Source: a virus. From it: a DNA stretch of 64,000 nt. The stretch covers positions 32,001 to 96,000 of the IMG/VR virus record IMGVR_UViG_3300034062_004313; one strand, given 5' to 3'. The notes beneath the pieces are model-generated. The model did not search any database and was not told where the DNA came from. It was given only the letters and a program-made list of their open reading frames with translations. Position numbers and translations under genes: made by a program. Below are positions 39,315 to 51,319 of the stretch, piece by piece; within the stretch, counting starts at the first letter, position 1, and the number at the start of each line of letters is the position of its first letter.

Positions 39315-40022
39315 TTAAAGATTCTCTTTACAAAACTCAATTACTTCATATTCAGGAGTATATCCTTTCGATTGCATAGCATTACGAATAAGATTTATTA
39401 CTTCTTCTCTTGTCCAACTATCTTTAATTGGTCTTATAGTAATGGTATTATCCTTAGCTACTTTAAGTATGTGATAAATATCTTTATGCGCCCAATATCT
39501 TATCCATATTTTACCTATAGGTGGAGTTATATCAAAATTTCTTTCTCCTGTTTGTTCACAATACCAATGCTCTTCAAAAGTTTTTTCTTCATATTCAACC
39601 ATCACTTCTTTTATTATATTACTTTTATTATATTCAGTAATATATTTTTCAATGAATGATTTAGATGGTTGTGGTAAATGGTCATAATGTGGACTATTCA
39701 TTTGCATTGGATGAATATTCAGAATATCTGTTGTAGCTATTACTTTTTTAGCTAATCCACTTAATCTTCTTGATTCTGATATTCTGTTGTTAGAATTAAA
39801 TAGTTCAAAAGAACCATCTGTCCAACACATAATATAAGGTAATATTTCACCATCTTTTATTGGTTCATCACTAAGGAAATAAAGATGTTGATGAGTCCAT
39901 GAACCATCAGGAACTTTTTCTTTCCAAATAGGTCGGTCTCCTATATAAAACAGCCTCGAACCTTTTGCAATAACTCCTTCTTTTTCTGTAGGTAAAAGAA
40001 TAACCTTTGTTTGTTTTAACAT
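39315..40022 (-). CDS. modular hypothetical protein, paralog of 28283..29173
   Basis: LLPTEK, QHLYFLSDEPIKDG, KKVIATTD, SFIEKYI, WTREEV. Confidence 0.65.
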   Translation of the reverse strand: MLKQTKVILLPTEKEGVIAKGSRLFYIGDRPIWKEKVPDGSWTHQHLYFLSDEPIKDGEILPYIMCWTDGSFELFNSNNRISESRRLSGLAKKVIATTDILNIHPMQMNSPHYDHLPQPSKSFIEKYITEYNKSNIIKEVMVEYEEKTFEEHWYCEQTGERNFDITPPIGKIWIRYWAHKDIYHILKVAKDNTITIRPIKDSWTREEVINLIRNAMQSKGYTPEYEVIEFCKENL

Positions 40023-40047
40023 AACATAGTTTTTAGTTTTAACAATA

Positions 40048-40518
40048 TTGAAGATTTATCAAATCTCCTGCACAATGTTGTCAGAGGTGAATCCTTGATG
40101 TAAAAGGAGAACTGCTACTTAAAGCTTCATTCACAATTACCACATAACAACTACTTATTTATATTGCTACAAATAAGGCATATTTCTTATAGCTGATTAG
40201 ATTTATCATTATTCATGGCCACATGGGTAGCGTGGTAGGTAGGTATCCCTGTATTCAGTCAGATATTATTCCCCCTTGTTGTCTAATACTTCATATCGCG
40301 TTTAGCTTATGCTGCCACTCTAAACTTTCGTTTAGCCCTTTCGGGACATTCTGTACTTAGATTATATACTCCAATCATCCTCCGGTCCTAACAGTTATAT
40401 CTAGTATAACATACATTAGCGGGATAGTATTTTCCAGAATGCTTTATATTCTCTACCAAATAACTTGCAAGATAGAACTACGAATTTGCAACTTCTGTTA
40501 TTTGTATTTATTTGGTAT
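40048..40518 (-). ncRNA. candidate large structured ncRNA (~470 nt)
   Basis: No long ORF; raised GC; three GNRA hairpins that read correctly only on the minus strand; long-range stems. Confidence 0.65.
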
Positions 40519-40521
40519 GAA

Positions 40522-40665
40522 TTAATTAATTAAATGAGGACCATCTGTTATAGTTCTGGTTCCTCCTTCTGATATCATACTTATAGCCTCCCTTAAACTT
40601 TGGGCTATAACTGTACAAGTGATTTGTTCACCATTTGTACTAATAACTTGCGCTGTGTATTTCAT
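40522..40665 (-). CDS. 47-aa small protein (MKYTAQVISTNGEQITCTV...)
   Basis: Manual translation; AT-rich leader before the ATG. Confidence 0.55.
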   Translation of the reverse strand: MKYTAQVISTNGEQITCTVIAQSLREAISMISEGGTRTITDGPHLIN

Positions 40666-40680
40666 AAAATAGATTAAAAA

Positions 40681-40721
40681 GATAGAAGGTGCTCACTCAT
40701 TGAGCTTTCCCTTCCACCAAA
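40681..40721 (-). ncRNA. loop-E-like hairpin, divergent copy C
   Basis: GGUGGAAGG-GAAA-GCUC-AAU-GAGU-GAGCA-CCUUCUAUC with the same UUGGURGAA 5' flank. Confidence 0.45.
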
Positions 40722-44374: not shown

Positions 44375-44443
44375 AGTTTGACATCATTAATGTTTCGTCC
44401 AAGTCTGGTCACAAACTGATTTTATACTCTTCTTGGCTGAGTT
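44375..44443 (-). ncRNA. hammerhead ribozyme, type I, G3:C8 variant with kissing loop
   Basis: AGUUU-GUGACCA-G(ACUUGGA)C-GAAAC-AUU AAU GAU-GUC^AAACU; upstream ACUC(AGCCAAGAA)GAGU loop is complementary to loop II. Confidence 0.7.
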
Positions 44444-48969: not shown

Positions 48970-49587
48970 ATGTCTCAATTAAATGCCAACACTCCTTATA
49001 TATATTGTTATATAAGGAAAGAAATTACGGGATTAGAGAATGATATGGAGGGGTATATCTTTGGAGTGAAGTCTCAATTGAATTATCCTCTCCTTTTTCA
49101 TTTTCAGTCTTCTATAGGAGCTATATTTTGGAATATTCCTATAAGTGGTTTTGTGCATAATTTGGAATATGAAGATTTGGATTTATCTATTCTCGAAACT
49201 TGGGATTGCCAAAGTAATGCTATATCTGTTTTATGTTTTAAGTTTCTTCAGCATAAGAGAGTGGATGTATTTTGTAGAGATGGTATATGGAGGAGTGGAA
49301 TTTATCACTTCACTATAGATGATTACGAAACGGATGTTAATGAAATAAATGTGGGTTATTCTCAAGATATGGATAGTAAGTGTTTTCACTTTATAGAACT
49401 TGATAATGGAAGATTTTGTGTGCATCCTAATAATATATTACGTTGGCATAATGCTGATTTTATTCATCCCTACGATAAAGAAAACCCTCCAAAAATAAAG
49501 TTGAATAATCCCAGAGTTAGTTCTGAAGATGTAGATTTATCATTTGCTAAAAGTGCTTATTATTTAAAATATGAAAGAACCAAATAG
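48970..49587 (+). CDS. conserved phage hypothetical protein
   Basis: LNANTP, LLFH, IPISGF, WDCQS, IELDNGRFCVHPNN. Confidence 0.7.
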   Translation: MSQLNANTPYIYCYIRKEITGLENDMEGYIFGVKSQLNYPLLFHFQSSIGAIFWNIPISGFVHNLEYEDLDLSILETWDCQSNAISVLCFKFLQHKRVDVFCRDGIWRSGIYHFTIDDYETDVNEINVGYSQDMDSKCFHFIELDNGRFCVHPNNILRWHNADFIHPYDKENPPKIKLNNPRVSSEDVDLSFAKSAYYLKYERTK

Positions 49588-51319
49588 AGTACGTAAGAAT
49601 CCTATACAATATAATATACAGTTAGATGAAGAGCAAAAGGCTGGTAAAGCTATAATTCTTCAATATCCTATTACATTAATTACTGGTCAGGCTGGATGTT
49701 TAGGATTAGACACAGAAGTATTAATGTATAATGGAACTTTTAAAAAAGTTCAAGATATTGTTGTAGGTGACCAATTAATGGGACCAGATTCTAAGCCTAG
49801 AAATGTATTATCTTTATGTAGAGGCATAGACCAAATGTATTGGATTAGACAAAATAGAGGAATTGATTATAGAGTTAATAGTAATCATATACTATCATTA
49901 ATAAGAGTTCAAACTGCAAAATATCCAAGAATTGCAGTTGATGGTGTAAGAAAACAAGATTTTTCAAGACCTCCTATTCATCCTAAAAAGGAAACAGTTA
50001 CAAATATAGAAGTTAATAGATATTTTGATTTGGGTTCTAAAAAACAATATATGGGATATATTTCAAATTGTCTTTTCTTTGAAGAAAAGAATTTATCAAT
50101 TGACCCATATTATTTAGGACTTTGGTTAGGAGATGGAAGTAAAAATTGTATAAGAGAAATTACAGCAGCAGATTCTGAAATAATAAATTATTTAATTGAC
50201 AAAGGAGCAAGAGCTAAATTAAATAGTAAATATGCATGGTTATTACCAATAAATTTAGAAACAGTTGAGTCTTTTAAAGATTTATTTTCAATTACAAATT
50301 CTTCAAAATTACCTGAAAAATTTATACCTAATGATTATTTGTTTAACTCAAAAGAAAATAGATTAAAATTGTTAGCTGGTTTATTAGATAGTGATGGACA
50401 TTATATAAAAGATGGAAAATATTATGAAATAATAGTAAAAAATAAAAGATTAGCAGATAATATAACATTTCTATGTAGAAGTCTTGGTTATAAAACTAAT
50501 CAAAGAGACAAGAAAGCTAGTATGAAAAGAGATGATGGTACTATATATAAATGTATTGTTCAAAGAATATCTATAATGACAGAAGATATTATACCTGTTA
50601 TTATAGATAGAAAAAAGAATGAAATTGGTTCTGATTTTAAAAATAGAAAATACACAGGATTCAAAATAGAAAAAGATATTATTGATAATTACTATGGGTT
50701 TACACTTGATGAAGATAATCTTTTTTTATTAAAGGACTTAACCGTTACTCATAATTCAGGTAAAAGTTTAGTTGCTCTACAGACTGGATTGGATTTTGTT
50801 AATAGTAAGATGGGTAAGATGGTATTAACACGTTCTTTAGTAGAGGTTGGAGATGAATCAATGGGTTATTTACCCGGAGATGCTAAAGAAAAGTTAAGTC
50901 CTTATTTAGAAGCAGCAATGGAGAATCTTGAGAAATGTATGTCAAGACAAGAGATTTTAAAGCTTGTTAATGATAATAGGATTGTTGCTGGTCCTGTAAA
51001 CTTCATGAGAGGTAAGACTGTAGAGGATGTGCTTATTGTAGAAGAGGGACAAAATCTTACTATAGGACAGATGTTAGCAGTTTTAACAAGAACTGGTAAG
51101 GAGGGTAAGATTATTATTACTGGTGACTTGGCTCAAAAGGATAGAAGAAAGGAAAGAAGTTATGGAGCATTGGACTTAGCAATTGATTTAGCTAAGGACT
51201 TACCTGAATATATAGGATGGGTAAAACTTAATGGTCAGCATAGACATGATGTGGTTAGTAAGATAAATGACTTAATTTATTCTGATAAATATAAAAATAG
51301 GGTATTCCCTGAAAACTAA
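49571..51319 (+). CDS. phoH: PhoH-family ATPase containing an intein
   Basis: Spliced P-loop GQAG|SGKS, LTRS, MGYLPG, FMRG, EEGQN, LTRTG, ITGDLAQKD, HRHDVV. Confidence 0.9.
   Translation: MKEPNRVRKNPIQYNIQLDEEQKAGKAIILQYPITLITGQAGCLGLDTEVLMYNGTFKKVQDIVVGDQLMGPDSKPRNVLSLCRGIDQMYWIRQNRGIDYRVNSNHILSLIRVQTAKYPRIAVDGVRKQDFSRPPIHPKKETVTNIEVNRYFDLGSKKQYMGYISNCLFFEEKNLSIDPYYLGLWLGDGSKNCIREITAADSEIINYLIDKGARAKLNSKYAWLLPINLETVESFKDLFSITNSSKLPEKFIPNDYLFNSKENRLKLLAGLLDSDGHYIKDGKYYEIIVKNKRLADNITFLCRSLGYKTNQRDKKASMKRDDGTIYKCIVQRISIMTEDIIPVIIDRKKNEIGSDFKNRKYTGFKIEKDIIDNYYGFTLDEDNLFLLKDLTVTHNSGKSLVALQTGLDFVNSKMGKMVLTRSLVEVGDESMGYLPGDAKEKLSPYLEAAMENLEKCMSRQEILKLVNDNRIVAGPVNFMRGKTVEDVLIVEEGQNLTIGQMLAVLTRTGKEGKIIITGDLAQKDRRKERSYGALDLAIDLAKDLPEYIGWVKLNGQHRHDVVSKINDLIYSDKYKNRVFPEN
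49697..50755 (+). mobile_element. 353-aa intein with LAGLIDADG homing endonuclease
   Basis: Starts CLGLDTEV and ends VTHN before Ser; LAGLIDADG-like motifs YYLGLWLGDG and LLAGLLDSDG. Confidence 0.92.

Follow-up and report, generated by a model that had tools for sequence, protein, structure and literature searches.

A structured non-coding RNA (ncRNA) that matches no family in Rfam was found on the minus strand of a 64,000-nucleotide (nt) stretch of viral DNA, hereafter the window, which is bases 32001-96000 of the 155,874-nt virus record IMGVR_UViG_3300034062_004313, detected in lake metagenomes. Comparative sequence analysis of 22 lineages (the window plus 21 others) confirms that the ncRNA belongs to a real structured RNA family kept by compensatory changes. 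The original prediction, read from the window alone, was of a large phage ncRNA of ~470 nt, possibly of a new class. A conserved structured RNA is indeed present, and the absence of Rfam matches for both the ncRNA and its homologs agrees with a new class, but the conserved part is only ~126 nt.

Identification of the family

Homologs were needed since the window sequence alone is unexceptional. Because its folding energy is no better than chance (z -0.41 against shuffles), the significance of the ncRNA rests on these homologs. A blastn search of the window against phages found no homolog, and search patterns built on the two GAAA hairpins of the ncRNA, being drawn from an insertion, returned nothing, chance matches or a 100% identical copy. 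The first two homologous loci, which carried the same ordered motifs, were reached by walking the contig of a close relative by terminase and by retrieving the DNA around homologs of the downstream open reading frame (ORF). Patterns made from these shared motifs then yielded further members in IMG/VR, and blastn of a short homolog found a full copy in an unannotated gap of the GenBank phage isolate Lbo-JY46 (L136, PP438436.1:8502-8931). The core alignment was made from the 20 members that are complete enough. A profile hidden Markov model built without the window recovers the window copy (E 8e-13 for the 5' half, 8e-6 for the 3' half). In two close relatives from a different lake run the core is preserved and the extensions differ, and one of the two (run X9 contig 17) has no GAAA insertion; in a close relative, all listed differences lie within the extension of helix P2.

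In bacterial genomes, the exact P2 pattern gave 0 matches and the exact 3' pattern gave three chance matches in Nocardia and one match on a phage-like contig binned as Saccharibacteria, although exact patterns miss divergent copies. Locus L139 (CAYPVU010000046.1) lies on this contig, which carries a terminase homolog and the ncRNA and is probably mis-binned. Lbo-JY46 is recorded as a Leptolyngbya phage, yet its terminase is related to this crAss-like group, and a TAnnTTTG box lies 39 nt before its ncRNA; the phage may really infect a Bacteroidota companion. Some members are irregular: L105 keeps the 3' half only, the 5' half of L139 is rearranged, and the 5' start of L134 is duplicated, which suggests recombination at module joints.

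Covariation and conserved structure

Covariation was scored with our own R-scape-like script, which applies a G-test, a background correction and a null model in which substitutions are redistributed over the tree. Every one of the nine highest-scoring column pairs is a predicted base pair, and against this tree-based null five have E<0.1. In sequence-only MAFFT alignments 91-93% of cells pair, none of 500 shuffles reaches the observed pairing, and pairing falls to 28-66% in slid controls. The minus strand had been proposed as the sense of the RNA, and the alignment bears this out: the core helices hold 31 G-U cells versus 1 A-C cell, and the GNRA-type tetraloop reads as GUAA in 19/20 members and as GCAA in 1/20. 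The homologs conserve no reading frame; the distances separating the anchors differ in all three frames, which excludes a conserved peptide.

The conserved core holds six helices, P1 to P6 (Table 1), with 52 of 126 columns invariant and a mean identity of 80% among the 20 members. Insertions of widely differing length are taken by P1, P2, P3, P5 and the P2/P3 junction, with four to five sites accepting 0-150 nt, and the anchored span, A-rich linker to AUUGUGC, varies from 151 to 444 nt (379 in the window) in members of ~200-490 nt total length. Double-sided changes are seen at three positions of the P1 base and, in the sequence-only alignment, in 6/8 pairs of P2, where 100% of cells are paired. 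P3 covaries from GCAU/AUGC to GCUA/UAGC (best pair E 0.08), and P4 has two of the top-ranked covarying pairs and double-sided changes in 6/8 pairs. The P6 hairpin folds better than shuffles in 20/20 members (mean z -3.7), whereas the variable extensions fold weakly (mean z -0.6 to -1.3). Pairing of P5, which shows no double-sided change, is plausible, not proven by covariation; its sequence is constrained beyond pairing.

The loop of P6 (L6) fits the UNR U-turn consensus in 20/20 members, and its triplet probably forms a 3-bp U-turn kissing pseudoknot with the internal loop of P2: AUC/GAU is replaced by ACC/GGU in one clade and by AUU/AAU in L122, with 59/60 cells paired. A further candidate pseudoknot, in which AYAA would pair with UUGU from the invariant linker, has one consistent change only (L106).

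All the features named in the original prediction are present on the minus strand, namely the stem 40442-40435/40353-40346, both GAAA hairpins (40345-40320), the GCAA hairpin (40177-40154), the 5' stem from 40517 and the 3' hairpin (40068-40050). The 40442/40346 stem had been thought to enclose a multibranch domain; it closes a long irregular hairpin instead, of which the extension in the window is common to L107 and L122. Nor is this an ornate conserved RNA on the GOLLD/ROOL scale, as the window copy is among the most expanded members and the GAAA hairpins are dispensable. At the site of these hairpins the one other aligned member that has anything in their place has a different insertion, and L124 and L139 carry other insertions there.

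Table 1. Features of the ncRNA and its flanking ORFs (window coordinates).
Feature	Position	Strand	Remarks
Upstream 47-codon ORF	40522-40665	-	Stop codon overlaps first bases of ncRNA
Whole ncRNA	40046-40523	-	Conserved 5' motif to end of P6; motif order common to homologs
P1: UACC/GGUA base (40517-40514 with 40457-40454) and variable extension	40454-40517	-	18/18 paired at all 4 positions
J1/2: A-rich linker ending in URUAAA	40443-40453	-	Conserved in 20 members
P2: 8 bp (40442-40435 with 40353-40346), then motif, then variable extension	40346-40442	-	
GAA/AGUA bulged-G (loop E type) motif atop P2	40434-40432, 40357-40354	-	Established consensus
Pseudoknot strand AUC in P2 internal loop, pairs with GAU of L6	40360-40362	-	
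Lineage-specific insertion: two GAAA tetraloop hairpins	40320-40345	-	Absent in 18/19 other aligned members
Near-invariant linker RGUGGCA	40313-40319	-	
P3: GCAUA/UAUGC base and 125-nt variable extension	40178-40312	-	
P4: 8-bp stem with GYAA tetraloop (40167-40164)	40156-40175	-	
P5: sequence-invariant base helix and variable extension	40077-40151	-	95.5% paired
Invariant linker AUUGUGC	40070-40076	-	20/20
P6: terminal hairpin, loop with invariant U before GAU triplet (40060-40058)	40050-40068	-	
Downstream 235-aa ORF, phrog_15656, function not assigned	39315-40022	-	Neighbour, not obligate partner of ncRNA

Distribution and genomic context

The ncRNA is single-copy, with one in G000 and one in each carrier genome. 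No copy was found by blastn, nhmmer or covariance model in ten other terminase-related IMG/VR phages, of which two are >=90% complete and most are fragments, yet the ncRNA is present in phages with distant terminases (TerL of the carriers is 23-28% identical to that of the window, with one at 66%). By this distribution, the ncRNA is an accessory, mobile module that is patchy among crAss-like phages. The terminase of the window has matches of 22-25% in Flavobacterium and crAss-like phages, from which we infer a Bacteroidota host for the phage.

The neighbours of the ncRNA change on both sides. On the 3' side a tRNA follows within 1-5 nt in 3 lineages and a phrog_15656 gene in 3/22, with other RNA modules or unrelated ORFs elsewhere. 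Of 23 loci, 3 have a tRNA directly 3' and another 3 have one within 1 kb; the tRNA cluster of G000 is >33 kb off. Five other informative homologs of the downstream phrog_15656 ORF have no ncRNA ahead of them, and this slot is held by another RNA family in L169 and by a tRNA in L167. On the 5' side, three or more distinct conserved RNA modules occur, or no module at all. The changing neighbours favour an autonomous unit over a gene-specific leader.

In the window, the ncRNA locus sits within a series of short minus-strand genes. The gap without a credible ORF that first drew attention is in fact the largest in the window (40023-40521), one 45-codon antisense frame apart. The conserved 5' end of the ncRNA, at ~40523, overlaps the stop codon of the upstream 47-codon ORF, which is putative, as a search for its homologs found none. 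Directly ahead of this ORF is a hairpin followed by a U run (40683-40721, minus strand), which could be a terminator or a processing signal. A sigma-70 promoter scan gave background level. A Bacteroidota-type TAnnTTTG box (40760-40753) was rejected as a promoter candidate, being without a clear -33 box and within chance. Elsewhere in the window are a RAGATH-1 hammerhead-like ribozyme 4 kb from the ncRNA (44375-44443, minus strand; E 1.3e-6, slightly below the gathering score) and a PhoH-like ORF (49571-51319, plus strand) with an inserted region that matches intein-bearing terminase profiles and is probably an intein.

Phages related to the window are rich in RNA elements: Pistol (L071:12349-12409, G011) and Hatchet (L042:11166-11350, G003) were identified with Rfam, and a group I intron-like gap and a tmRNA-like gene were recognised by eye in G008 (L030:10238-10627 and L032:504-1029, both minus strand). 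A second uncatalogued RNA family is found in related phages (L069:9450-9760, L066:9130-9490, L169:1990-2215, L043, L032 and L045) and is not in G000. It has a CCUU-GAGA-AAGG hairpin with a loop complementary to a downstream UUCUCA, a probable pseudoknot in which both loop and partner are changed in L107. Its terminal helix has CCCUACUC, and L066 and L069 give no Rfam match at gathering score. The 5' domain of this family is also seen upstream of the ncRNA in L072, L102, L103, L107 and L124.

A helix-closed module abuts the 5' end of the ncRNA in two versions, which may be homologous to each other: one in L067, L071, L077, L078 and L097, the other in L102, L103, L107, L113 and L124. In its place the window has a GAGG/CCUC hairpin (40564-40537) inside the 47-codon ORF, as in L072 and L136. 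Two further conserved non-coding modules recur beside the ncRNA, one in L069:10590-10780, L075, L067:10720-10930, L071 and L097, the other in L069:11200-11330, L073, L075 and L082. Phages carrying the ncRNA bear chains of RNA modules, the order of which changes.

Comparison with known RNA families

No Rfam match was found for the window ncRNA at gathering score or at E<=1, nor for eight homolog loci at relaxed thresholds, while the same scans detect Pistol, Hatchet, RAGATH-1, tmRNA and group I intron nearby. The locus had been described as without hallmarks of tRNA, tmRNA, RNase P or group I introns; in line with this, ARAGORN and Rfam found no tRNA, tmRNA or RNase P RNA in it, and an RNase P reading was considered and dropped. 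The family was not found in Rfam 15 or in the literature searched, where matching of its motifs to article text returned only an unrelated flavivirus paper; the comparison did not extend to the large set of viral RNA candidates of PMC10690425, so that an earlier unnamed prediction is possible. The family is uncatalogued, although its kind, the orphan structured phage RNA, is already known.

ROOL and GOLLD, phage RNAs near tRNA islands with structures from cryo-EM (PMC12286853), resemble the ncRNA as orphan structured phage RNAs that are sometimes beside tRNA genes and have kissing or pseudoknot contacts and a variable periphery. Neither covariance model matches the window (the ROOL model at gathering or relaxed thresholds) or the eight homolog loci. 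ROOL has multiple pseudoknots in a large fold, versus one probable pseudoknot, with a second hinted at, and a 126-nt core here; many GOLLD members exceed 800 nt and have a conserved 3' domain (PMC12286853), versus the shorter members and one 3-bp kissing contact here. As neither model matches and the core is much smaller, the ncRNA is, on these comparisons, not a ROOL or GOLLD member.

In the I/V interaction of the Neurospora VS ribozyme (PMC4138328), as is probable here, a U-turn hairpin loop gives three bases to Watson-Crick pairs with a distant loop. This is a structural analogy only, as the probable partner in the ncRNA is in an internal loop beside the bulged-G motif, and there is no VS core or cleavage loop. 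Pistol, Hatchet and RAGATH-1 hammerhead ribozymes were found in this phage group, in the same regions, and also combine an invariant core with variable stems; the URUAAA linker here is comparable to the A-rich linker that follows the 5' hairpin in the consensus of Pistol and RAGATH-1 hammerhead ribozymes. The ncRNA differs in that it matches none of their models, lacks CUGAUGA/GAAA and any other known catalytic motif, and has a larger core and a single copy. Family models of hammerhead, twister, twister-sister, pistol, hatchet, HDV-like (to which the theta ribozymes of phages belong; PMC10879173) and glmS ribozymes gave no match for the ncRNA.

A superficial likeness to group I introns of the phage IA type is seen in the GCAUA/UAUGC helix followed by a GNRA hairpin, which recalls P7 and P9. 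This reading was rejected: P3 and P8 are lacking, and between the two strands of the helix, which form the base of a freely varying hairpin, lie 31-146 nt of unrelated sequence, a plain hairpin in L102. Furthermore, no gene or tRNA is interrupted, the flanks being separate and differing between members, and RF00028 gives no match although the model detects the true intron in L066. A T-box reading was dropped since the L6 triplet pairs internally; the loop-E motif is also in the opposite orientation to that of the T-box specifier loop. An anticodon decoy in L6 was likewise dropped, as the triplet covaries with its internal partner.

Proposed function and alternatives

Tentatively, and at somewhat less than an even chance, the ncRNA may be a stable trans-acting RNA of crAss-like phages, with a protein or ribosome as its binding partner during infection. 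It would be transcribed together with the surrounding accessory, probably early, genes and excised as a stable RNA, with RNase P cleavage making the 3' end where a tRNA follows. The compact core would be locked by the L6 U-turn kissing contact and the bulged-G motif, the GYAA loop would probably dock on a tandem C-G receptor such as P1, and the variable helices would point outward. An invariant surface (GGCAGC, P5, AUUGUGC and GAA/AGUA) would be presented in trans to a conserved protein or ribosome-related partner; the invariance of P5, while P2, P4 and P6 covary, argues for such a recognised surface. The ncRNA could be a decoy or scaffold that aids host takeover or counter-defence.

Several points weigh against this picture of structure and function. 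Part of the 126-column core alignment was anchored by hand (the count was repeated on plain MAFFT alignments), and the tree-based null comes from a script of our own rather than from R-scape. The pseudoknot rests on two independent changes, one of them clade-wide, and is not individually significant (E 3.75), and docking of the GYAA loop is without covariation support in the core alignment. No candidate partner gene co-occurs in the flanks examined, and the invariant surface is just as compatible with an active site or with an RNA-RNA interface.

With an active site, the ncRNA would be a new class of ribozyme cleaving or ligating RNA, probably separating the RNA, tRNA and mRNA modules of long phage transcripts. 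This is unlikely, even though the core is invariant while the peripheral helices vary freely, and the 3-bp kissing contact recalls the VS ribozyme (PMC4138328). The URUAAA linker, the ribozyme-rich setting (RAGATH-1 in the window, Pistol in L071, Hatchet and group I intron in relatives) and the placement of the ncRNA between modules also point this way. No Rfam ribozyme matches even at E<=1, there is one copy per genome and no cleavage site can be named, and in members followed by a tRNA the 3' end is already produced by RNase P; most small self-cleaving ribozymes also have a core smaller than the ~126 nt here. The chance is similarly small that the family is a new natural ribozyme or RNA-only machine with a VS-like, kissing-locked six-helix core that processes or controls the RNA-rich early transcripts of crAss-like phages. 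With an RNA-RNA interface, the L6/P2 kissing contact and the GYAA loop would act between molecules and build rings or cages, as in GOLLD and in ROOL, which forms a homo-octameric nanocage. Here there is precedent in the kissing loop of ROOL, first read as tertiary, that turned out to be intermolecular (PMC12286853); covariation is blind to pairing in cis versus trans, and a tRNA adjoins in 3 lineages. Such a multimer is nevertheless quite unlikely, given a core far below GOLLD size, a single kissing contact with no palindromic loop, bulky insertions at five sites that must fit the lattice, and the lack of a ROOL or GOLLD model match.

The constant sense of the ncRNA with its flanking genes, and its end ~20 nt ahead of a start codon in several members (three times that of phrog_15656), would fit a cis-acting leader, such as a riboswitch, attenuator or RNA-stabilising element for the downstream sequence. 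What lies downstream is unrelated genes, tRNAs and other RNAs, most phrog_15656 homologs are without the ncRNA, and no conserved terminator or alternative pairing was seen, making a leader very unlikely. It is highly improbable that there is no functional RNA here and that the locus is the remnant of an intron or gene, or an element at the DNA level: the unremarkable folding energy of the window copy, the weakly folding extensions and the loss of part of the 5' half in L105 and L139 are set against compensatory changes, the 31:1 G-U to A-C bias, conserved GNRA and UNR loops, the lack of an interrupted gene and a close relative whose listed differences all lie in the P2 extension. Covariation in the alignment largely refutes this reading.

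Significance

With this family comes an uncatalogued RNA fold in which an unusually large number of nucleotides are invariant, a profile typical of earlier discoveries of ribozymes and RNA machines. It is directly testable, as the natural minimal member L102, of ~190 nt from the P1 3' strand, is readily transcribed. As the deposited isolate Lbo-JY46 bears a full copy, expression of the ncRNA and its partners can be studied during infection.
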